Assembly: GCA_049322615.1 (NCBI GenBank)
Contig: JBMORX010000010.1
Span: forward strand, 25,416-89,415
Length of the DNA stretch: 64,000 nucleotides
Direction of reading: 5' to 3'
DNA from: Patescibacteria group bacterium
GTDB taxonomy: Bacteria; Patescibacteriota; Microgenomatia; CAYGWK01
Below, in pieces: positions 4,836-56,900 of the stretch (position 1 is the stretch's first letter; every line of letters begins with the position of its first letter). Below the pieces are notes generated by a model. That model saw only the letters and a list, made by a program, of their open reading frames with translations. It did no database searches and was not told the origin of the DNA. Both the position numbers and the translations under genes were made by a program.

Positions 4836-5713
4836 TCAGCTGCAGCCTCGGGGTCATGGCTTACAATGAGGAAAAAAATATTGCCCGGGCCTTAGAGGCT
4901 CTTCTTTCCCAAAAACTGAAGAAAGTGAAAATAAAAGAAATCTATATCATTGCCTCAGGCTGCACTGACAGGACAATTCCGATCACTAAAAGAATCGCCA
5001 AAACCGACAAACGGATTAAACTCTTGATTCAAAAAAAACGGGAAGGAAAGTCGTCGGCCGTTAATCTATTTTTAAAGCACGCTCGGAGCAAAATTGTCGT
5101 TTTGGTCGGGGCGGATACGCTCCCTCAAGAGGATGTCGTCGAGAAATTAGTGACCCCTTTTTTAGATCCCCAGATAGGGATGACCGGGGCTCACCCCATT
5201 CCGGTTGATCCGGATAATACCTTTTTCGGTTTTGCGGCCCATCTTTTATGGGAACTGCATCATCAAGTTTCTTTAAGCTCACCTAAAATGGGGGAGATGG
5301 TGGCTTATCGGAAAGTTTTTGAGAGAATCCCTTATGCTTCGGTAGTCGATGAAGCCACGGTTGAACCCCTAATTGTGGGTCAAGGGTATAAACTTCTTTA
5401 TGTTCCTTCGGCGATTGTTTTTAACAAAGGAACAGAGAATTTAAGGGAATTTCTAAAACAACGCCGGAGAATTCATACCGGACATCTAGCTTTAATTAAA
5501 GTCCAAGGCTATAGCGTTTCTACCTTGAGCAAAAGGCGGCTGTTTTTGGCTTGGCTTAAAAGTTTTAGGTTTGAGCCAAGATTTATTTTTTGGTCACCAT
5601 TAGTGGCTTTTTTGGAGATTGTCGCCCGGCTCTTGGGGACTTATGATTTCTATTTTAAAAAAGATAAGCACACAATTTGGGAAGTCGCTTACTCAACTAA
5701 AAGATTGAAATGA
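4832..5713 (+). CDS. Family 2 glycosyltransferase
   Basis: ATG 4832 after GGAGGAGG, ATGA overlap with the previous stop. GVMAYNEEKNI..., GADT (DxD-like), GT2-like layout. Confidence 0.75.
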   Translation: MISCSLGVMAYNEEKNIARALEALLSQKLKKVKIKEIYIIASGCTDRTIPITKRIAKTDKRIKLLIQKKREGKSSAVNLFLKHARSKIVVLVGADTLPQEDVVEKLVTPFLDPQIGMTGAHPIPVDPDNTFFGFAAHLLWELHHQVSLSSPKMGEMVAYRKVFERIPYASVVDEATVEPLIVGQGYKLLYVPSAIVFNKGTENLREFLKQRRRIHTGHLALIKVQGYSVSTLSKRRLFLAWLKSFRFEPRFIFWSPLVAFLEIVARLLGTYDFYFKKDKHTIWEVAYSTKRLK

Positions 5714-28722: not shown

Positions 28723-28751
28723 TTGCCAAAAATCAAGTTTTTTAGTAAAAT
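28723..28751 (+). promoter_or_regulatory. Promoter TTGCCA-17-TAAAAT for the tRNA-Ile unit
   Basis: TTGCCA 28723-28728, 17-nt spacer, TAAAAT 28746-28751. The predicted start is just upstream of 28764. Confidence 0.5.
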
Positions 28752-28763
28752 ATTTTTAAGATT

Positions 28764-28805
28764 GGGCGATTAGCTCAGTTGGTTAGAGCAGCCCGCCAAA
28801 ATTTT
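28764..28805 (+). other. tRNA 5'-half-like leader (acceptor, D-arm, anticodon-stem strand) without a matching 3' half
   Basis: GGGCGATTAGCTCAGTTGGTTAGAGCAGCCCGCCAAAATTTT. Shares TAGAGCAGCCCGCCAAAA with the scaffold at 31291. Confidence 0.6.
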
Positions 28806-28877
28806 GGGTCGGTAGTTCACCGGTAGAACGCTTACCTGATAAGTAAGAAGTAGATGGTTCGACTCCATCCCGACCCA
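28806..28877 (+). tRNA. tRNA-Ile(GAU)
   Basis: GGGTCGG/CCGACCC acceptor, loop CTGATAA, T-arm GATGG-TTCGACT-CCATC. Confidence 0.85.
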
Positions 28878-28931
28878 CAGTTTTGAAGAAGAAGGCGAAT
28901 CGGGAAGGGCGCTCCGCTCCAAATTAGCCTC

Positions 28932-28960
28932 TTGACAAAAAATCGCACGTGCGATAATTT
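28932..28960 (+). promoter_or_regulatory. Promoter TTGACA-17-TAATTT with palindromic spacer
   Basis: TTGACA 28932-28937. The spacer contains tcgcacgtgcga. TAATTT at 28955-28960. Confidence 0.5.
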
Positions 28961-29208
28961 GTCAATAAATTAGCCTCAAAATTTAAAAGAAAAACCCAAA
29001 AATTCTAAAGAACAATGTTTAAAACTTTAAAGGCGCAACCGGTGGAGTCAACAAGAAATTGCTTTCCGTTGCCCGATTGCGCCATCAAAAAAAGCAATCT
29101 CCAAAATGTTGACTCCAATAACAATATACCAAAACTAAGAATAGAAAAACAAGTGGATTTCGGTACTTGAATTTTGAAAATATGATATACTTTTACTTGG
29201 AGGTAAAA

Positions 29209-31105: not shown

Positions 31106-31244
31106 TCGGAGTAATCAGAAGACTCGGAAAACTCGGAGAATCAGGCGGTCAGATTGTCAGAAATTCTGATTATCAGATTTCTCTGATCTTTCCGACGCAC
31201 TGAGTTTTCTGATTCTCTGAAACGAGGGCCCGTAGTTCAACTGG
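31106..31244 (+). repeat. Word hairpin copy 2 plus duplicated tRNA-Lys 5' fragment
   Basis: Shares actcggaaaactcggag, ctgattatcagattt and ctgagttttctgat with 21625-21743. Followed by gggcccgtagttcaactgg (compare the tRNA-Lys start gggcccgtagctcaatgg). Confidence 0.7.
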
Positions 31245-31290
31245 CCCCGTAAATCCGCCTTCGGCGGTAACGGGGTAAACAGAACATTTT

Positions 31291-31455
31291 GGGCCGTTAG
31301 CTCAACTGGCTAGAGCAGCCCGCCAAAAATTGTGAGAAGGGCCTATGGCGTAACGGTAGCGCATTTCGTTTGCAACGAAAAGGTTGGGAGTTCGATTCTC
31401 CCTAGGTCCACACAATTTAGGCGGGAGGTAGAGGGTTCGAATCCCTCACGGTCCA
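31291..31455 (+). other. tRNA-like scaffold (G3:U70, D- and T-arms, no anticodon loop) enclosing tRNA-Ala
   Basis: GGGCCGT/ACGGTCC acceptor and T-arm GAGGG-TTCGAAT-CCCTC. CCCGCC (31319-24) pairs with GGCGGG (31420-25), and AAATTGTG (31327-34) pairs with CACAATTT (31411-18). Confidence 0.6.
31339..31410 (+). tRNA. tRNA-Ala(UGC)
   Basis: GGGCCTA/TAGGTCC acceptor with G3:U70, loop TTTGCAA, T-arm GGGAG-TTCGATT-CTCCC. Confidence 0.85.
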
Positions 31456-31847
31456 CTAGCACCTTAACAATTGAAGAGAACCGCATTTATTCTAATTCAT
31501 GGCCTAATTTTTATTAAAGCAAATGGTGGATGCCTTGGTGGCAAGAGCCGAGGAAGGACGCGGCAGGTGGCGATACTCGTCGGGGAGAAACCTAGCATTC
31601 TTTGATCCGGCGGTTTCCGAATGGGGCAACCCGGCGCAGTGAAAACTGCGTCAAGCGCTGTTTCACTGCGATATTAAATAGTAAATAGTAAAAATCAAAA
31701 ATACATATTAAAATTCAAAAAGATTTTTCTCTTTAAAATTTTACTATCTATATTTACTATTTAATTTTTAATATTTGATATCGCTGCGAAGCAGCGTTGG
31801 GGAACCACCCGAACTGAAACATCTAAGTAGGGTGAGGAAAAGATAGA

Positions 31848-32030
31848 GCTTGTGCTTCGCACAAGTTTCCGAATGAATCCGAATGCTTTTCATTGGTCTA
31901 AAATCTATTCGGATAAATTCGGATGAAGAACTTGACTTGAAAGTTAGTTTCAACATCCGAATAAATCCGAATAAACAAAATCAAGAAAGCGTATTAGGAC
32001 TAAATTCGGATACTCGCGCGAAGCGCGAGC
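31848..32030 (+). repeat. ~184-nt multi-hairpin insertion element, 23S copy
   Basis: Colinear with 24161..24344. Long identical runs: gcttgtgcttcgcacaagtttccgaat, attcggataaattcggatgaagaacttgac, caacatccgaataaatcc. Confidence 0.85.
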
Positions 32031-33116
32031 AGATTCCGCAAGTAGCGGTGAGCGAAAGCGGAAAAGCCTAAACTCGTGCGGAGCACGAGTTCGCTGAACT
32101 ACGCTGATTCATACGCTGAACTACGCTGAAACCTAATTTTCTTCTGCGTTAATCCGCGTCTTGATCTGCGTTTATCGGCGATCTCATGCTTCGCATGAGA
32201 GTTGGAGGACTCCAACGTGGGAGTGTCGAGGGTAGTCGAAGGACATGGAATTGTCCACCAGAGAAAGTGAAAGTCTTGTAGACGAAACCTGAAACACCCC
32301 TAGGAGCACCTAAGTACCATGGGGCAAATACCCTGTGAGAATCTGGCCGAACCATCGGCTAAGGCTAAATACTCTTGCTGACCGATAGTGTACCAGTACC
32401 GTGAGGGAAAGGTGAAAAGAAGGGTTTAAAACCTAGTGAAATAGAACCTGAAACCGTTTGCTTTCAAACAGATAGAGGCCCGGGAGTGAATTCTGTTTAC
32501 AATCTTCAGCGATTTTCAGCGTTTTGTTCAGCGTCAATCAGCGCTAATCGCTGATAAACGCGGATAACTACGCGGATTAACGCTGAAATAATTGTAGATA
32601 GTACTCACTTCCGAGCTAATATCGTGCCTATTGAAGAATGAACCGGCGAGTAACTATGTGTTGCGTTTTGGTTAATCCCATTTAAATGGGAGAAGCCGTA
32701 GCGAAAGCGAGTCTTAATAGGGCGTTAAGTAGCACATAATTGACCCGAAACCGGGCGAGCTAACCATGGGCAGGGTGAACCCGCCTAAATCGGCGAGGGG
32801 AGGCCCGAACCCGTTGCTGTTGCAATAGCATGGGATGACCGGTGGTTAGAGGTAATATGCCAAACGAGCCCGGAGATAGCTGGTTCTCCCCGAAATATAT
32901 ATAGGTATAGCCTTAATTTTAACTCCTCCTGAGGTAGAGCACTGGATGGTCTCGGCAGCGCAAGCTGTCGTGATCAACCAAACTCCGAATTCGGGGGCGA
33001 GAAATTGAGGAGTCAGAACGACCGGGCTAAGCTGGTCGCTCGAGAGGGAAACAACCCAGACTTTCGTCTAAGGTCTCAAAACTTTGGCTTAAGTGGAAAA
33101 GGAAGTATTTACCCTA

Positions 33117-33153
<37 letters not shown>

Positions 33154-34122
33154 AAAAGAAAGCGTAACAGCTCACTGGAAGACCCGTCTCGACTCAGTCG
33201 AGCCGAGGCGGATTGGGTGGGTGCGCCGAAAATTTACCGAGGCTAAAAGCCAATACCGAAGACAAAGGTTTCGTGCAGAGCACTGCTCTGCGCGAGGCAG
33301 TAGGGGAGCGTCCCGATAGCAGTGAAGTCCTTCCGCAAGGTCAGGATGGAGCTGTCGGGAGTGAGAATGCCGGTATGAGTAGCGAAAGTCCGATAAGAAT
33401 TCGGACCGCCGAAAACCCGAGGTTTCCCCCGCAATGTTCGTCAGCGGGGGGTTAGTCGGTCCTAAGCCAAGTCCCCGATTTAATCGGGGAGTAGGCGATG
33501 GAGGAGCCGTTTATATTCGGCTACAGGAAAGAAATCATTTTTAGTCGGGGATTGACAGAAATGGAAGAGCCAAGTCTCGAAATGACACGGGATTTAAGTT
33601 ATAAGGCAGTTCCGATAGGAAAATCCATCGGAACGTTTTAACCGAGTAACAAATAAGAGTCCAACCCGCAAGGGAAGGGCAATTTGGTAAGCTTTCAATT
33701 CTTGAAAAAAGATTCGCGACGAACCCGAATAGTCTTACCATTCGCCTTAGTACATTTGTACTGCGGCTTATGGAGCGACTTAACGGGTCTAGGATTTCTT
33801 TTTTACCGTACCGCAAACCGACACAGGTGGGTTGGACCAGAAGTCTAAGGCGAGCGGGAGAAGGAAGTTTGAGGAACTCGGCAAAAAATCTGGGCGTAAG
33901 CTATGCAAGATGCCCTCCCCCACACCAAATTTTGGTGTGGGGGTGCAACAAAAGATTGTTTGGCGACTGTTTAACTAAAACACAGGCCTCTGCAAAGGGT
34001 AATACCCAAGGTATAGGGGCTGAAGCCTGCCCAGTGCCGGAAGGTTATGGGGACTTGTCCTTCGGACATTTGCCCGGAGGGCGAGAAACTTAAGCCCCGG
34101 TGAACGGCAGCAGTAACTATAA

Positions 34123-34539
34123 ACGAAAGTATTGTAGTTATAAAACTTGGCTATATGCTGGAAAGTCCGTCCTGAAAAAAGAATAGCATGCAGTGGTACC
34201 CTTGATACCGTGATGTTGTACTATTGTAATAGTACAGTGAAACAAAAGGCGATATAAAGGGTAAAAATCCACCTGCTGCGGACAATCAGCAGGAAAGACC
34301 AAGAAATATCAAATATAAAATATCAAAAAGTAAATATACAGATTAAAAATAAAATATTTTAATTTTGCTTTGTATTTTTGATATTTAATCTTTAATTTTT
34401 GATTTTCTTCGGAATCCTCAGAGACTATACGCCAAGGTCGCCGAATTGGCGACATGAGATAGTCCGACCTCCCAAGAGATTGGGAGAGCCGTAAACAATC
34501 GGTCTTAGGGACGTCAAACGTCCCGAGTAACAAAGTGAA
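34123..34539 (+). other. ORF-less group I-like intron in the 23S helix 69-71 region (~E. coli 1917-1921)
   Basis: Splits gtaactataa | c.gttcgatggtagcgaag. Contains ggctatatgctggaaagtcc, cagagactatacgcc and gagatagtcc core-like strings, and itself carries an AT-rich word hairpin (about 34300-34400). Confidence 0.6.
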
Positions 34540-35137
34540 CTGTTCGATGGTAGCGAAGTCCCTCGTCGGGTAAGTTCCGACCCGCACGAAAGGCTAAACG
34601 ACCAAACAACTGTCTTGAACTTTCACCCGGCGAAATTGAAATGGCTGTGAAGATGCGGCCTACATGCTCTTGGACAAAAAGACCCCGTGGAGCTTTACTA
34701 TAGCTTGGCATTGGGTTGGGTTTTGAAATTGTCTAGCGTAGGAGGGAGCTTGTGCGTAGCACAAGCACGCGGATAAACGCTGATTTTGACGCCGATTGAC
34801 GCTGATTTTTTTTCAGCGTTCTTCAGCGTTTTATTCAGCGTAATTCAGCGTGCTCGCGCTGCGCGCGAGCATTAATGTAACACCTCTCTTTTCAAGACTT
34901 CAATTCTTACCTATGGGCTTTGCAAACAAGCTCGGGAAAAGTGTCAGGTGGGTAGTTTGACTGGGGAAGTCGCTTGCTAAAAGGTAACGCGAGCGCACAA
35001 AGGTCGGCTTAGTCCGGATGGAAATCGGACCGAACGTGCAAAGGCGAAAGCCGGCTTGACAGTGAGACCGACAGGTCGAACTGGTGCGAAAGCAGGTCTT
35101 AGTGATCCCCCGCCTGTTCGTGGGAACGGCGGGGCTT

Positions 35138-35174
<37 letters not shown>

Positions 35175-35218
35175 GGACCCGAGAGTCCATATCGACGGTC
35201 CGGTTTGGCACCTCGATA

Positions 35219-36128
35219 AACAAGAGTCGATTGTCGAGGTTAAACTCAGCTCATAACGGTGAAATCCTTATCATTTTAGAACCCAGCTTGAGAATGTTAA
35301 AATAAATGAGAGGACAATACCGTGGGAAGTTATTGGGAAAACAAAAACTTACAGAGACGATGGGTTCTTCTTAAGAAAGGCTTGCGATTGACACAAAAGC
35401 AGAGATCAGTGTTAATTGGTTCCTTACTTGGAGATGGAACATTGAGACGTGGCATAAGAGCAATCAATGTTAATTTTAAAGTTGAACACGGTTTGCGTCA
35501 GAAAGAATATGTTTTCTGGAAGTATCTGGTTTTCAGAAATTGGGTATTTACTGAACCTAAATTGAGTTACAGATATAGAGATAATGGGAAGAGATATTTA
35601 AAATCTTGGTGGTTTAGGACAGTTCGGCACCCTGTTTTAACCAAGTATTGGAAGCATTTTTACTCTGGCAGGAAAAAGATTATTCCAGATTTAATCGACA
35701 AACTGTTTGATTCATTGGTTTTGGCTGTTTGGGTCATGGATGACGGGTGTTATCAACACGGAAGAATTGATATTAGCACCTATGCTTTTACACTTAAAGA
35801 AATCCATCGTTTACAGGATGCATTAAGGACGGTGTTTGCTCTTGAATCTCACTATTTCAAGGATAGAGAAAAAGGTTATCGGATATATTTCTCTGTTTCG
35901 GAGACAAAGAAAGTTATAAATTTTATTCGTCCTTATATAATTCCTTCAATGCAGTATAAAATTGGTTTATCCCAACAACCCCGTAACGACTGATCCCTGA
36001 AGTATGCGCGCAAGTGCTTAATTTTGGGGTGAGATGGAAAGAATTCTTTCTTCCATCACACGCTGAGTCCTGGACTGTTTGGCCCAGGAAAGGTATAGTC
36101 TACACCATTAGTAATATTGGATTTTGTG
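35219..36128 (+). other. 23S intron with LAGLIDADG ORF in the peptidyl-transferase-centre region (after CACCUCGAU, ~E. coli 2500-2504)
   Basis: Exon ggcacctcgat ends at 35218 and gtcggctcatc resumes at 36129. Confidence 0.7.
35322..35993 (+). CDS. LAGLIDADG homing endonuclease (double-motif monomer)
   Basis: LIGSLLGDGTL and LAVWVMDDGCY motifs. 223 aa, GTG start. Confidence 0.8.
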   Translation: MGSYWENKNLQRRWVLLKKGLRLTQKQRSVLIGSLLGDGTLRRGIRAINVNFKVEHGLRQKEYVFWKYLVFRNWVFTEPKLSYRYRDNGKRYLKSWWFRTVRHPVLTKYWKHFYSGRKKIIPDLIDKLFDSLVLAVWVMDDGCYQHGRIDISTYAFTLKEIHRLQDALRTVFALESHYFKDREKGYRIYFSVSETKKVINFIRPYIIPSMQYKIGLSQQPRND

Positions 36129-36601: not shown

Positions 36602-36974
36602 AGTTTTTGCGCTTAAGCCTTTCGGTCTCCGGAGCGGACTGGAGCCACTCCTTCCCATTCCGAACAGGATAGTGAAACAGTCCAGCGACCCGTAAAATTT
36701 GCGCAATTTAAGATTTCAAAGTATAATAAATATGCTTCGGTGATAAGAGCGCCGTCGAACTACTCCTTTCCATTCCGAACAGGATAGTAAAAGGCGGCAG
36801 CGGGGACGATAGTTAGACCTTGTGTTTAGCGAAAATACCTCATTGCCGAAGCTTTTTTATTGCGCAAATTAACGGGTCAGGGACGTTACGAAGCTTTACG
36901 TCCCGCTGACGATAGTTCCCCGTCTAACGGGGGCGAAAATAGGTCGAGGCCGGAGGACTTGAGCGCAAAAACTT
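36602..36974 (+). other. Outer 5S-like RNA interrupted by an insertion that carries a complete 5S gene
   Basis: Closing stem aagtttttgcgct (36602-14) / agcgcaaaaactt (36962-74). Contains the 5S core ccattccgaacaggatagtgaaac and gacgatagttcccc, split by 36691-36875. Confidence 0.6.
36734..36852 (+). rRNA. rrf: 5S rRNA (inner, uninterrupted copy)
   Basis: 119 nt. Helix I gcttcgg.../...ccgaagc. Core ccattccgaacaggatagtaaaag and gacgatagt. Confidence 0.8.
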
Positions 36975-38354: not shown

Positions 38355-39779
38355 ATGCGAGCGACGACGAAGTTTGTCTGCCAGCAATGTGGATATGAGT
38401 CGGCTGGGTTTTTGGGCCGCTGTCCAAATTGCCAAACCTGGGGAAGTTTAGTTGAGACGTTGGTGCCAGGAGAAGAGACCCGCCTTCGCCAAGGCTTCGG
38501 CGGGCAAGGGGCGGAGGTAAAACCAGTGAGTCTTGGAGAAATTAAAGTTTCCACCCTTCAAAGAATTTCCACCAAAATCCAAGAGTTTGATCGGGTTTTG
38601 GGTGGAGGAATCGTCCCAGGCTCGGTTATTCTTTTGGCTGGCGACCCAGGAATTGGAAAATCAACCCTGCTTCTTCAGGTAGCAGCAGAAATAAGTGATA
38701 AGGGCGAAGGGCGAAGTGGGAAGCAGGGAAATTTAGTTCTCTACGTTTCGGGAGAGGAATCGCCGGAGCAGATAAAAATTCGAGCCGAAAGGCTGGGGAT
38801 TAAGAATAAAAATATTTTGTTTTTGACCGAGACGAATGTAGAAGCGGTAATTGAGGAGATAGAGAAATGGGAAATGAGAAATGGGTCGGGAAGTGGGGGT
38901 GGGAACTGGGAAAACAAAAATCATCTCACTTCTCACATCTCACCCCCACCCATTCTAGTTATTATCGATTCCATCCAAACCCTCTATACTTCCTCTTTAA
39001 CCGGAACCGCGGGGAGCGTTGGTCAGGTAAGAGAGTCTGCGGGAAAATTACTCAATTTTGCCAAAACGCACGGAATTCCCATGTTTTTTATTGGTCATGT
39101 AACCAAAGAAGGGGCGATTGCCGGACCAATGGTTTTGGCTCATTTAGTTGATACGGTTTTGTTTTTTGAAGGAGAGAGATTTCAGAGTTTAAGAATCCTT
39201 AGGAGTTTTAAAAATCGTTTTGGACCAACCGATGAAGTTGGCGTTTTTGAAATGGGAGAAAAGGGACTTGAGGAGGTCTCAAATCCTTCAAAATTATTTT
39301 TAGAAGAAAGAAGAGAAAAAGTTCCTGGATCAGTCGTTACTTGCCTAATGGAGGGTTCAAGACCCTTGCTTTGCGAAATTCAGGCGTTGACTGTTCCCAG
39401 CCAACTTGCCATTCCTCGCCGGGTTGGGCAGGGAATAGACTGGAATAGACTTCAGCTTTTGGTGGCGGTTTTATCAAAAAGAGCAGGCCTTCCCCTCTCT
39501 TCTTTTGATGTCTTTGTTAATGTCGCTGGCGGAATTAAGGTGGCAGAACCTGGAGTAGATTTAGCTGTCTGTCTTGCTATTGCCTCATCTTTTGCCGATA
39601 AGCCCTTGGACCCCAAAATCTGCGCCTTAGGCGAAGTTGGACTGTTAGGAGAAGTCAGACAGGTCGGAAATTTAGAAAAAAGAGCCAAAGAAGCCCGCCG
39701 ACTGGGATTCACAAAAATTTTAAGCCCCAGGGAAGTCAGAACCGTTTCTTCAGCCATCAAAACCTTCATCGGCAAATAA
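38355..39779 (+). CDS. radA: DNA repair protein RadA/Sms
   Basis: N-terminal zinc finger CQQCG...CPNC, Walker A GDPGIGKST, KNRFG motif, Lon-like C-terminus. ATG after aggagg. Confidence 0.9.
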   Translation: MRATTKFVCQQCGYESAGFLGRCPNCQTWGSLVETLVPGEETRLRQGFGGQGAEVKPVSLGEIKVSTLQRISTKIQEFDRVLGGGIVPGSVILLAGDPGIGKSTLLLQVAAEISDKGEGRSGKQGNLVLYVSGEESPEQIKIRAERLGIKNKNILFLTETNVEAVIEEIEKWEMRNGSGSGGGNWENKNHLTSHISPPPILVIIDSIQTLYTSSLTGTAGSVGQVRESAGKLLNFAKTHGIPMFFIGHVTKEGAIAGPMVLAHLVDTVLFFEGERFQSLRILRSFKNRFGPTDEVGVFEMGEKGLEEVSNPSKLFLEERREKVPGSVVTCLMEGSRPLLCEIQALTVPSQLAIPRRVGQGIDWNRLQLLVAVLSKRAGLPLSSFDVFVNVAGGIKVAEPGVDLAVCLAIASSFADKPLDPKICALGEVGLLGEVRQVGNLEKRAKEARRLGFTKILSPREVRTVSSAIKTFIGK

Positions 39780-53947: not shown

Positions 53948-56900
53948 TTAATTTATTATCCACCAGTTAAACCTTATCTCTTGGTCAATTGGGGTATCAA
54001 TTCCAACCTTAAACCATTCGCCAGATTTCTTGGCCGAAACGTACAAGACCTTATTTTGAGTATCTGAAACTGGAGTAAGATAAACTAAAGTATTTTCGCT
54101 GACTTTTGGATTAAAAATTGTAAATTCAGTTGAGCCCGCAGGTAAAATTCCCAACCCCGAGGTGGCGTTAGTTCGGATTTCTGCCAGGCTTGCCGATTGG
54201 GTAGCCGAGTAATCGGCGGCAATGACCAGAGAGGCAAATTGGGCTGAACCCGAAGCATCGATTGAGGCGACGGTCTCCCCAAGCGGGTTTTGAATCGCCA
54301 AGAGCTTGCCAAAAGCAGATTCTTCTGGGGAGGTCGAACCTCCGGAGAGGTTCGACCTCTTAAGGACTAAACCAGAAGCCGAGATCTCACCGCCGACTGC
54401 CAGATTGCCGGCGACCTGAACATTGCCATCGGTATCAATCGTCATCTTTCCTGCCAGAATATCAACTGGTCCCCAACCAGAGGACTGAAGACGGAGGACA
54501 GAAGACGGAAGAGAGTTGATACCCGTGCTGTCGATAACAACTGCTCCATCAACCATTAATTGTCCAGCCACAGTCGTGTCAGCCAAAGAGGTTCGGCCTA
54601 AAACCTTTAAGTTTGCGGTGATTTTCAGGTCAGAAGAAGGATCGGTGATTGGCCAAGATTGAGTCTCAGCTAAAAGACTGCTTGCAGTTGCGGTTTCGTT
54701 GGCATATGATAGAGTTGGCGTGGGGTTGGCAGGTTGGCTGGATGGGCTTGTCAAGCCACGTCCATCGGGTTCAACTCCCGACAGCTCCACGCCCTCTTGA
54801 GATTGGGACTTGACAGGCGTGTTATTATCTGTTATATTATTGTCAAGCTTGACAGGCCCATCTATTAGCGAACTTGCTGGACTTACCAGAGCCGCTTCAT
54901 TTGAGGCGGTTTTTTGGTTCTCGAGATTTTCTAACCTTGCCAATAATTCTCCAAAGCTGCCCCTTAAGGCGCTTATTTCTTTAGTTTCTATCTTGTCCGC
55001 GTAGAGGGTGCCGGAAACCGTCGCATCTTGGGTTACTTGTAACGTCTCACTTGTCACCTGTCCGGCGAAGCTTGCTGAGCCGGAAGAATCTATACTCGCC
55101 ACCGTTTCTCCTTGCTCATTCTGAACCAGAAGCTTGCCGAAGCCAGATCCTTCGGAGGTCGAACCTCCTTGGAGGTTCGACCTCTTAAGGGAAATCACGA
55201 TTTCCGAAGAGTCTGGTAATGGTGAAATAATTCCAGTCTCAACCACCGGCGAGATAATCTTCTTCTCGGCGATTAATCTTTGTCCAAAAATCGTTCCTGC
55301 TTCGTCAATTGAGGCAATGGTTTTACCAAGAGAGTCTTTAATCTCAAGAACTTTTTCAGCTACATCAACTGCCTTCTTGGTGTTAATAACTACCTTATTT
55401 AAAGTGGCTACTCCCAATTCGTCAATTAACCAATTGCCGTCCGTTGATTTAATAGTCTTAGTCACTATTTCCTGGGCTTGTATTTGTTCCTCTGGTGGTG
55501 AGTCTTGGTTCCAAGAGAGATTGGCAAAGGCGGTAACTTCTCCTAGGGCATTGATGTCTCCATTGGTTTCAAAGGGAGAAAGGGCGATTCCGATAGTTCT
55601 TACTTTACCGGTCGCCTTCATTGCCCGACCCGGGACAGGTGAGGCCGTCAAGAAATCGCCTCTTTTGATCGAGCCGCCAATTCCAGAAACCTTAACTGGA
55701 ACACGACCCGCAAGAGCAAGAGGATATTTAAATTTAGCTTCGGGCATATCGCCGTCAAGAGTTATAGCGGGCGCAGTCGAAATAATACCCAAAACATCCC
55801 CTTGATTAGCCTTTGTAGTCCTTACCAGGTTTTCGTTGTTATTTGGGTCAACAGCAACTAGTTCTCCCGGTTCAAGGGGCATACTAGCGGGAAACATTTC
55901 TGCTAAATCAAAACCGTTAGATAGACGACAACATTGAGCATACCAACCCGGATTACAAGTTCCGGGGCAGGAGCCTCCCCCTGAAACAGAGGTACATTTA
56001 TAAGTGGTGGAAATATTACTACAAGCAGTATTCCCGGTTATACCATTGCAATCTGCGGAAGTTGTACATTCAATATTTAACGCCGTACCACTTTTTCTTA
56101 TTTGACCAGTAAAGTTAATATCTCCGGAAACATCTAATTTATAGGAGGGCCCCGTCGTCCCGATGCCGACGTTGCCGTTCATATAAATCTTACCTTCACT
56201 ATCTACAATTTCCCCATAACCCGCATGCTTATACATCTGAATGTATGCACCAGCAGTACCTTCGTACAATCTTAATTTCGCTTCGCTACCACTTGTAGAT
56301 GTTCCAGCAACAATGTCCCCTGCAACTGCCAATTTAAAATTTGAACCAAGATTATTCCAGATATTAGAACCAACTTGTGTGAGATACGCTGGACTCGTCG
56401 TCCCGATGCCGACATTGCTACCATCCAGAGTCATTACATTCGCAACACCGAGATTAGTGAAAGTCAATTTACTACTTAAATTTTCGATTCTCCAGGTTTT
56501 TCCTGCGGTAGAGTTTGTAAGGTCCAGTTGGACATCGCCAGCACGTTCAATATCTAAAGCAACTGTTGGACTTGTCGTCCCGATTCCGATATTGCCAGCG
56601 TTGGTAATTCTTAGCCTTTCTGTTGCTCCGGCGTCGCCTCCAACCGAGGTATAAAAAGCCAAATCGCCAGCGTTTAAGGTATAAATCTTGGAAAGTCCGG
56701 AAGTGGGGAGAAGAGTAAGATTGGGGGTGCCGGAAATTGAGGCAATTCCACCCATCGTTAAATTGCCAACATTAATTAAGTTGTCACTTGCAAGAGAAAT
56801 ATTATTTGAGGCAGCGTTAATGGTAATATCTCCTGAACTATTGCTAATTAAAGATTGGGCGCCGCCAACAGTCAAACTTCCACTTTGGGTGGAGGAACCG

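Follow-up and report, generated by a model that had tools for sequence, protein, structure and literature searches.

Why does a complete tRNA-Ile gene follow directly on what looks like the 5' half of another transfer RNA (tRNA) that lacks its 3' half? This question is raised by a locus in the ribosomal RNA (rRNA) region of a Patescibacteria metagenome-assembled genome (MAG), of which a stretch of 64 kb was analyzed (the window; all coordinates are window positions, and L-numbers denote other loci or assemblies that were compared). The genes are arranged in the order 16S (from 22676), tRNA-Ile(GAU), three open reading frames (ORFs), tRNA-Ala(UGC) (31339-31410), 23S (31503-35313) and 5S, and the ORF adjoining tRNA-Ile corresponds to ACOZBZ_04480 in the NCBI annotation (Patescibacteria group bacterium). 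A first-pass annotation had described the segment in front of tRNA-Ile as a tRNA 5' half without a 3' partner, homologous to a tRNA-like scaffold around tRNA-Ala at 31291, and had taken it for a decayed version of that nested arrangement. Our analysis supports all three of these statements. With a probability of about 0.85, the segment 28764-28805 is the orphan half of a nest, by which we mean a tRNA gene that carries a complete second tRNA (the cargo), held between two complementary arms, in its anticodon arm.

The features on which the argument is based are the following:
28723-28751, forward strand: predicted sigma-70-like promoter TTGCCA-17-TAAAAT (10 of 12 consensus matches; called from the consensus match alone)
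28764-28790, forward strand: orphan 5' half, positions 1-26 of a disrupted resident tRNA-Ile (sequence reading; matches to L060 and L001)
28791-28805, forward strand: left arm of a type A cassette, GCCCGCC (28791-28797) followed by AAAATTTT (28798-28805), assigned by arm comparison
28806-28877, forward strand: cargo, a complete tRNA-Ile(GAU) without an encoded CCA (ARAGORN; Rfam RF00005, 67.9 bits)
28878-28885, forward strand: trailer strand CAGTTTTG, predicted to pair with CAAAAUU of the left arm, a putative remnant of helix 2 next to the cargo
28886-28924, forward strand: expected site of the right arm, T arm and acceptor 3' strand, unrecognisable, with faint collinear traces at most (p ~0.08 alone)
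31291-31455, forward strand: intact type A nest with an outer tRNA-Ala-like scaffold (sequence; predicted fold)

An orphan 5' half in front of tRNA-Ile

The predicted promoter, with its -35 element TTGCCA at 28723-28728 and its -10 element TAAAAT at 28746-28751, would start a transcript about 5-7 nt upstream of the orphan half. Read directly from the sequence, this half consists of the acceptor strand GGGCGAT (28764-28770), TA, the D arm GCTC-AGTTGGTTA-GAGC (28773-28789) and A26, and the stretch from TA to the end of the D arm (28771-28789) holds the T8/A14 and G18G19 of a canonical tRNA. The other parts of a canonical tRNA are lacking. No ATCGCCC strand with a discriminator is located downstream, where the best candidate for an acceptor 3' strand, CCGCTCC, pairs with GGGCGAT at 3 of 7 positions (hand pairing), and where an anticodon stem, its 7-nt loop and a T arm (GTTCRANNC) would be expected, the sequence runs from GCCCGCC through AAAATTTT into the cargo.

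The segment 28764-28790 is identical to the plain tRNA-Ile(GAU) gene of L060 at 25 of 27 positions, and orphan half and arm together match the outer 5' half of the nest in L001 at 37-38 of 41 positions, by which a chance look-alike is ruled out for 28764-28805. The left arm is one A short and otherwise identical to the left arm of six other nest copies (five distinct). As to the scaffold at 31291, the 18-mer TAGAGCAGCCCGCCAAAA occurs exactly at only two sites in the 64 kb, 28784 and 31311 (31311-31328), and 28762-28804 and 31289-31331 are 86% identical over 43 nt.

Intact nests at the tRNA-Ala locus and in related genomes

The minimum-free-energy fold of the Ala nest is a cloverleaf inside a cloverleaf (z -5.07). 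Its outer gene has the acceptor stem GGGCCGT/ACGGTCC with G3:U70, a D arm and the T arm GAGGG-TTCGAAT-CCCTC (31431-31447), and the anticodon arm is replaced by the two cassette arms (31318-31334 and 31411-31425), which pair first in a 6-bp helix (GCCCGCC/GGCGGG) and then, beyond an internal loop (AA/A), in an 8-bp helix (AAATTGTG/CACAATTT), with the cargo tRNA-Ala(UGC) (31339-31410) at the tip.

One scan of species-representative genomes yielded a single further nest, L001, in a Patescibacteria MAG, where a tRNA-Ile(GAU) nest is located in the same position of the spacer between 16S and 23S (16S - tRNA-Ile - tRNA-Ala - 23S). Its left side reads GGGCGAC-TAGCTCAGATGGTTAGAGCA-GCCCGCC-AAAAATTTT, its right side TCAAAATTT-A-GGCGGG-AGGTC-ATTGG-TTCAAAT-CCAAT-GTCGCCC-A, and the predicted fold is a nested cloverleaf (z -5.69). 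The first-pass annotation had suggested searching for relatives that retain the 3' half, and had allowed that the 5' segment might turn out to lack tRNA-like conservation at homologous loci. L001 is such a relative, and the conservation is there: at the orthologous position it carries the same 5' half, and there the right arm, the T arm and the 3' strand of the acceptor stem are still intact. Compared with this type A pattern, the left side (outer positions 1-26, GCCCGCC-(A/G)AAAATT and a complete cognate tRNA) is found in the window at 28764-28877, with one A absent, while the right side (AATTT-A-GGCGGG, AGGTN, T arm and acceptor 3' strand) is absent from 28878-28930 and present at 31411-31455.

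A metagenome scan revealed five more intact type A nests, with the cargos tRNA-Thr(GGU) (L006 and L035), tRNA-Pro(GGG) (L014), tRNA-Pro(UGG) (L029) and tRNA-Val(UAC) (L043). The pattern used, without the last C of the arm, also picked up ordinary tRNA-Met(CAU) genes (AGCCCGCTCATAACGGGT), and the nests account for 5 of the 46 loci. L006 and L035 represent one Thr nest in two species, so that the seven intact type A copies correspond to six distinct nests. Common to all are the arms GCCCGCC-AAAAATT...AATTT-A-GGCGGG, and in each of the six distinct nests the outer helices are fully paired (acceptor stem 7/7, T stem 5/5, helix 1 6/6), helix 2 next to the cargo varying with compensation (GTG/CAC, TTG/CAA, CGG/CCG, C/G, TG/CA). 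Among the sequences gathered by that stage, 7 of 210 tRNAs were nested, and the architecture was seen in at least 10 independent assemblies. Scans of viral contigs for both arms and BLAST searches of phage genomes gave no nests, chance or inner-tRNA matches being the only returns. At the nests, ARAGORN (including its intron mode) and Rfam report the inner tRNA and not the outer one, which is why outer genes and their relics are invisible in current annotations.

The L043 nest is located on a contig of 2.5 kb (1-2537) that is taken up almost completely by 11 tightly packed tRNA genes, which include one with a CUA anticodon (pyrrolysine, Pyl, according to ARAGORN) besides the nested tRNA-Val; this contig could be a phage-like tRNA array.

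Outer genes share the identity of their cargo

Judged by acceptor stem and discriminator, the outer gene has the identity of its cargo in all eight nests (8/8). The first 3-5 acceptor pairs and the discriminator are equal between the two, for instance C1:G72 in both Pro nests, G3:U70 in Ala and GCC...U73 in Thr, and the observed pairing of outer genes and cargos is the maximum of 120 permutations (five identities), tied with one other. The outer gene of L001 equals the plain resident tRNA-Ile(GAU) of L060 in the acceptor stem, D arm, variable loop and an unusual T stem (ATTGG/CCAAT). From this we conclude that the outer gene is the resident tRNA-Ile with its anticodon arm replaced.

Two statements of the first-pass annotation have to be revised accordingly. 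It had regarded the two carriers of the window as paralogs of each other and not of their cargo, which is contradicted by the cognate acceptor ends and by the match of the L001 outer gene to the L060 resident gene; what the two carriers have in common is the insertion arm and a D arm of a kind found in many bacterial tRNAs. It had also read GCCCGCC as an anticodon-stem strand of canonical Ile/Ala type. On the same evidence, GCCCGCC is part of the inserted cassette instead. The two inner tRNA-Ile sequences that go with type A arms are about 60% alike in our own sequence comparison.

Filled and empty alleles

The orthologous spacers of relatives of L001 were fetched via the MscS-like gene located 3' of the tRNAs. 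Synteny via the neighbouring 257-amino-acid ORF was discarded, its homologues not adjoining tRNA-Ile, and look-ups of the MscS-like proteins P0238 and P0136 led to loci without the tRNAs.

In L059 and L061, which encode an identical MscS-like protein, the resident tRNA-Ile contains an insert of 124 nt between positions 35 and 36 of its anticodon. This type B insert consists of an arm, tRNA-Ile(GAU) and the complementary arm; its deletion restores the gene of L060 at 74 of 74 positions, and its cargo is identical to the plain resident tRNA-Ile of L074 at 71 of 74. Between L059 and L060, identity is 94.1% on the upstream side of the tRNA and rises to 99.9% over the 3.5 kb that follow it, a difference that indicates a recombination breakpoint at the nest. 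The tRNA-Ala of L059, L060 and L061 forms a nest, too (type C, with the arms CCCCGTACC-AAATT...AATTT-GGTACGGGG), the cargo matching the plain tRNA-Ala of L074 at 67 of 71 positions. The two Ala lineages swap roles between the genomes: the GGGCCGT lineage is the outer gene in the window and the cargo in L059-L061, the GGGCCTA lineage the cargo in the window and the outer gene in L059-L061. Furthermore, at the site upstream of recA that the nest occupies in L014, a close relative (RecA 83% identical) carries a plain tRNA-Pro(GGG).

A gene split in this way could also be a genuine intron-containing tRNA, from which the unit of arm, tRNA and arm is spliced out so that each transcript yields two tRNAs; the Ile locus of the window would then be a dead copy. 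Indeed, the exons of L059 and L061, parted exactly at 35/36, make a perfect tRNA-Ile when joined, and Patescibacteria tolerate group I introns in tRNA anticodon loops, position 35/36 included (PMC13011429). However, the intact type B exons are equally well explained by a recent insertion, considering the 99.9% identity of the downstream flank, and no group I or group II core or other Rfam family was detected in the inserts, RF00028 being unmatched at both window loci and at L059. The base before the type B 5' junction is A35 and not the U that group I introns require. A bulge-helix-bulge motif is absent, the type A junction being a helix, a 2x1 internal loop (AA/A) and a helix and the type B junction a 4x3 loop. 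In addition, type A outer genes are devoid of any anticodon loop, which leaves nothing functional to splice, and the outer loop of type C is non-canonical. Altogether, we rate splicing as improbable.

The 3' side of tRNA-Ile

Neither a T arm nor a strand complementary to GGGCGAT follows tRNA-Ile, and no 3' partner was found within the 64-kb window when it was searched for ATCGCCC, T-arm motifs and GGCGGG plus a T arm; the sole orphan canonical T arm in the 64 kb, at 31431-31447, is part of the Ala scaffold. A relaxed tRNA search (Rfam at E<=10 and the ARAGORN intron mode at 28700-29000) returned nothing beyond the inner tRNA. Alignments of 28878-28945 to the scaffold 3' halves are marginal (best of 7 local alignments p 0.02; global alignment with flank p 0.014-0.02) and are not relied on here. 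Further matches were rejected. The other exact ATCGCCCA, at 28677, is located upstream of the promoter and has no T arm, about 2 such matches being expected by chance; a T-arm-like match at 39351 falls within a coding region and another at 54765 belongs to a separate tRNA-like element (54722-54792, see below); and a second AATTTAGGCGGG, at 25362 inside the 16S intron, is attributable to chance, given that an exact 12-mer is expected about 1.5 times per 7-kb self-comparison.

The gap between tRNA-Ile and tRNA-Ala measures 6-130 nt in L001 and all its relatives (about 8-70 nt if the outer gene ends are counted), compared to 2.4 kb in the window, where it holds three ORFs with their own promoter. 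A rearrangement has therefore clearly taken place next to the Ile nest of the window.

The missing 3' partner, and nothing else, is what one would expect if the leader resembled a tRNA by chance, if the assembly were chimeric at this point, or if the gene were a split tRNA with its 3' half elsewhere. The 25/27 match to real tRNA-Ile genes, the occurrence of the architecture in at least 10 independent assemblies and the lack of any T arm plus ATCGCCC strand in the 64 kb make this highly implausible. We also regard it as very improbable that the 5' segment is an integration scar, with the tRNA gene having served a phage or integrative element as attachment site. Integrases classically target the anticodon loops of tRNAs, and Williams reportedly described in Nucleic Acids Research in 2002 that such elements restore the tRNA with a copy of their own. 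Integration of this kind is expected to leave partial 3' duplicates kilobases apart, whereas here a 5' half is located 8 nt (AAAATTTT) from a complete tRNA of different sequence; moreover, the inserts of the relatives are about 105-124 nt long, palindrome-armed and free of an integrase, and the scanned viral contigs and phage genomes contain no nests.

Cassette arms as probable ends of mobile DNA

The type C termini are not restricted to the tRNA-Ala cassette. In L074 they bound a palindromic element of 73 nt (278-350, CCCCGTACTGAAATT...AATTCTAGTACGGGG) without a tRNA, which is flanked by TTGA on both sides and splits the -35 region of a promoter; L001 has this promoter without the interruption, and the empty site there reads TATTGA directly followed by CTTGAAATT (TATTGA, then CTTGA). 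The arm types are related to each other, types A and C by the inner AAATT/AATTT and types A and B by GCCCGCC, and, as in miniature inverted-repeat transposable elements (MITEs), terminal inverted repeats enclose differing content, the type A arms bounding 6 cargos. A target duplication is present for the L074 element (TTGA) and possibly for type C (CA or CAA), and absent for types A and B; type B has its clean empty site in L060.

A further feature of the window resembles such an element:
31226-31276, forward strand: second relic, 19 nt from the 5' end of a third type of tRNA-Ala (GGGCCCGTAGTTCAACTGG), with a hairpin CCCCGT...ACGGGG behind them (repeat family D13)
The plain tRNA-Ala of L063 begins with GGGCCCGTAGTTCAGTTGG, to which this fragment is comparable, and the hairpin ends resemble type C arms. 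The relic is located 65 nt upstream of the Ala nest and looks like a second relic layer. In L062, the sequence after the plain tRNA-Ala (369-460, ...GAAAATCCGTTCAGGTCCA) resembles the T arm and acceptor 3' strand of a type C outer gene in a decayed state; judged by this resemblance, it may be a 3' half without a partner and so mirror the Ile locus of the window.

Proposed replacement of resident tRNA genes by cassettes

Beyond the assignment of 28764-28805 itself, we propose, with somewhat better than even confidence, a fuller account in which a mobile cassette replaces the resident tRNA gene and the leader is removed as a by-product. An older resident tRNA-Ile(GAU) in the rRNA spacer would have been disrupted in its anticodon arm by a small cassette consisting of two complementary arms, GC-rich outside and with AAATT/AATTT inside, around a complete tRNA-Ile. 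In the intact state, as at 31291-31455, L001, L006, L035, L014, L029 and L043, the transcript would fold as a cloverleaf within a cloverleaf, the outer gene keeping its acceptor stem, D arm and T arm, the arms replacing the anticodon arm and the cargo at the tip supplying the decoding function that the outer gene has lost. At the Ile locus of the window, the old gene would persist as outer positions 1-26 with the left arm attached; its T arm and acceptor 3' strand, together with the right arm, would have been lost or overwritten. A leader of about 48 nt would be transcribed from the 28723 promoter, form a 7-bp leader-trailer helix beside the cargo and be cut off by ribonuclease (RNase) P. The cassettes probably are, or were, mobile DNA. 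As tRNAs are single-copy in these genomes, only insertions into the cognate gene would be expected to survive, and selection against non-cognate disruptions would explain why cognate nests alone are seen. The fixed junctions might, more speculatively, result from an exchange driven by homology in the D arm and the variable/T-loop region, whose sequences are common to the tRNAs for Ile, Ala, Val, Thr and Pro.

Several observations speak against this account. For the way in which a cassette would acquire a cargo cognate to its target, the model itself has no explanation. At the Ile locus the 5' half is pristine and the 3' side unrecognisable, yet of equal length (47 nt compared to 45 nt expected) and followed by a similar flank (TTAGCCTCTTGACAA compared to CTAGCACCTTAACAA), so that simple decay is a poor fit. 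The type A junctions always lead from A26 into GCCCGCC and from GGCGGG into A44 in six outer genes, with the anticodon arm gone and without a target duplication, and such fixed junctions are not the product of simple cut-and-paste insertion. In addition, the type A arms are near-invariant across hosts whose rRNA is about 70-77% identical, with differing cargo; this would be explained by conserved transposon ends around variable passengers, but could equally reflect a constraint on the RNA sequence. The outer genes of L006 and L035 are identical at 87 of 88 positions, with flanks that are about 72% identical, and this conservation suggests that an intact outer gene is not mere debris, although it could be due to selection or to recent transfer. 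Finally, no transposase or nuclease could be tied to the cassettes, with no search aimed at transposases and one GIY-YIG ORF as the sole lead: this ORF of L029 (6618-6854, reverse strand) encodes a nuclease domain in 78 amino acids (Pfam E 4.8e-13) and starts about 70 nt downstream of the tRNA-Pro nest, a single case. The ORFs near the Ile locus (25.5-30.9 kb) belong to LAGLIDADG, DUF2946 or no family.

Alternatively, the outer scaffold could be a selected RNA device rather than debris, which presents the cargo on an extended anticodon-arm helix, with the invariant arms as a recognition site for a conserved nuclease or binding protein. Through its L-shape and acceptor end, the device would attract RNase P, RNase Z and the CCA enzyme, or protect or chaperone the precursor, in a manner similar to the synthetic 'tRNA scaffold', and at the Ile locus a reduced version, the 5' half plus the leader-trailer helix, would still serve. 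In line with this, the outer tertiary nucleotides are all kept (T8, A14, G18G19, T54T55C56, A58), the 15:48 pair covaries (G:C in four nests, A:T in L043), and the outer gene encodes CCA in CCA-encoding genomes (L014, L029, L043); the outer identity of 87/88 between species with flanks of about 72% identity, arms conserved across hosts with about 75% identical rRNA and differing cargo, and the 5' half at 28764, which shows no decay, fit as well. On the other hand, nests are sporadic (7/210 tRNAs) and close relatives have plain genes at the same sites, the type B insertion is clean and recent, L060 having the same gene intact, the tRNA-Ile of the window does without the 3' half, which makes the scaffold dispensable, and the role reversal of the Ala lineages is hard to reconcile with a dedicated carrier. 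We also know of no RNase that recognises such a sequence-specific helix. For these reasons we consider a dedicated device unlikely.

Returning to the replacement of resident genes by cassettes, two extensions are conceivable. It is possible, though we hold this only tentatively, that the cargo tRNA genes are themselves 'selfish': palindrome-armed cassettes would home into the cognate anticodon arm, inactivate the gene and thereby become indispensable, in cycles of invasion, nesting, decay and re-invasion, and the two tRNA-Ala lineages would have invaded each other in different genomes. In a stronger variant, the intact outer gene would have been co-opted as a natural tRNA scaffold, a handle for processing or protection, and the Ala outer gene might be charged by alanyl-tRNA synthetase (AlaRS) via G3:U70.

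Comparison with known systems

A description of nested tRNA genes was not found in the available text of the literature searched, including that of a systematic survey of tRNA interruptions in Patescibacteria. In none of the systems compared here does the anticodon arm of one tRNA gene hold a second tRNA that is complete and cognate, and the wider phenomenon of which the Ile locus is a trace is apparently undescribed. Like the nests, tRNA-targeting integrative elements bring foreign DNA into the anticodon region together with a sequence that restores the tRNA, and leave orphan fragments behind; unlike them, the nests are about 105-124 nt long, have no recombinase, deliver a whole tRNA rather than its 3' part between complementary arms, and keep both old halves folded around the insert. 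MITEs and repetitive extragenic palindromic (REP) or REPIN-like palindromes are likewise short, non-coding and bounded by terminal inverted repeats, with and without target duplication, whereas the cassettes carry a tRNA gene and sit in a cognate tRNA gene, and type A, without duplication, deletes 17-18 nt of its target. Group I introns share with the nests the host phylum, the anticodon-loop target and, for type B, the position 35/36, but the insert of a nest is a tRNA plus helices without a ribozyme core, and type A outer genes are not restorable by splicing.

Disrupted tRNAs of archaea comprise those with bulge-helix-bulge introns as well as split and permuted tRNAs, and the intron of tRNA-Trp encodes a C/D box RNA. 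There, too, tRNA halves are parted by a helix-held intervening sequence, which can encode a functional RNA; the nests differ in being bacterial, in lacking a bulge-helix-bulge, in enclosing a complete cognate tRNA and in an outer gene that is usually without an anticodon. In the tRNA-like domain of transfer-messenger RNA (tmRNA), and in the synthetic 'tRNA scaffold' for recombinant RNA that is said to go back to Ponchon and Dardel in 2007, the ends also form an acceptor stem, a D-like region and a T arm, and a large insert replaces the anticodon arm. The Ala outer gene, and no other, additionally shares G3:U70 with tmRNA. The nests lack an mRNA-like domain, their insert being a tRNA, and the tmRNA model was not significant at the Ala nest, where a match to permuted tmRNA reached E 9.4.

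If the proposed account is true, tRNA genes in ultra-small bacteria are replaced by a complete tRNA that is delivered inside the anticodon arm of its predecessor, a route that is apparently undescribed. Orphan tRNA halves in these genomes would thereby be accounted for, and mobile DNA would gain a new kind of insertion that complements its target. The nests would also represent a natural counterpart of the engineered tRNA scaffold and a system in which the processing of a cloverleaf within a cloverleaf by RNase P and RNase Z can be studied.

Other features of the window and its relatives

No full tmRNA was called in the window. At 54722-54792 (forward strand), a tRNA-like element of 71 nt combines a tmRNA-type acceptor (GGGGTTG/CAGCTCC-A with G3:U70) with the T arm TCGGG-TTCAACT-CCCGA and has only a short hairpin in the place of the mRNA-like domain; the Rfam tmRNA model (positions 1-374) matches both of its ends with a score that falls short of the gathering threshold (26.4 bits, E 1.8e-8).

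Just upstream of the tRNA-Ile promoter, a proline-rich ORF (27847-28551, reverse strand) resembles an inserted cassette, being bracketed by a 56-nt direct repeat (98% identical; 27604-27659 and 28570-28625) and an 18-nt inverted repeat (27824-27841 and 28534-28551).

In L021 (about 5100-5330), a tRNA-Met(CAU) contains an 18-nt hairpin (ATCGGTCAGACTGCCGAT) in its anticodon loop, and the neighbouring tRNA an insertion in the variable region. Both are further small interruptions of tRNA genes that are not group I introns.

The rRNA genes are interrupted as well. Contrary to the Rfam match, 25051 is not the end of the 16S gene: the exon breaks off behind CTTGTACA (about 25013) and continues from 26054 (CACTGCCCGTCA), a second interruption, with a weak group I match, follows at about 26145, and the end of the gene is located near 26970 (GGATCACCTCCTTTCT). 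Both insertions (25014-26917) hold LAGLIDADG ORFs (25522-25974 and 26301-26807). A partial second 5S match (36634-36686, model positions 14-66) is located about 50 nt upstream of the full 5S gene. The 23S match at 31503-35313 spans 3811 nt compared to a model of 2925 nt, from which we conclude that the 23S gene also carries insertions.

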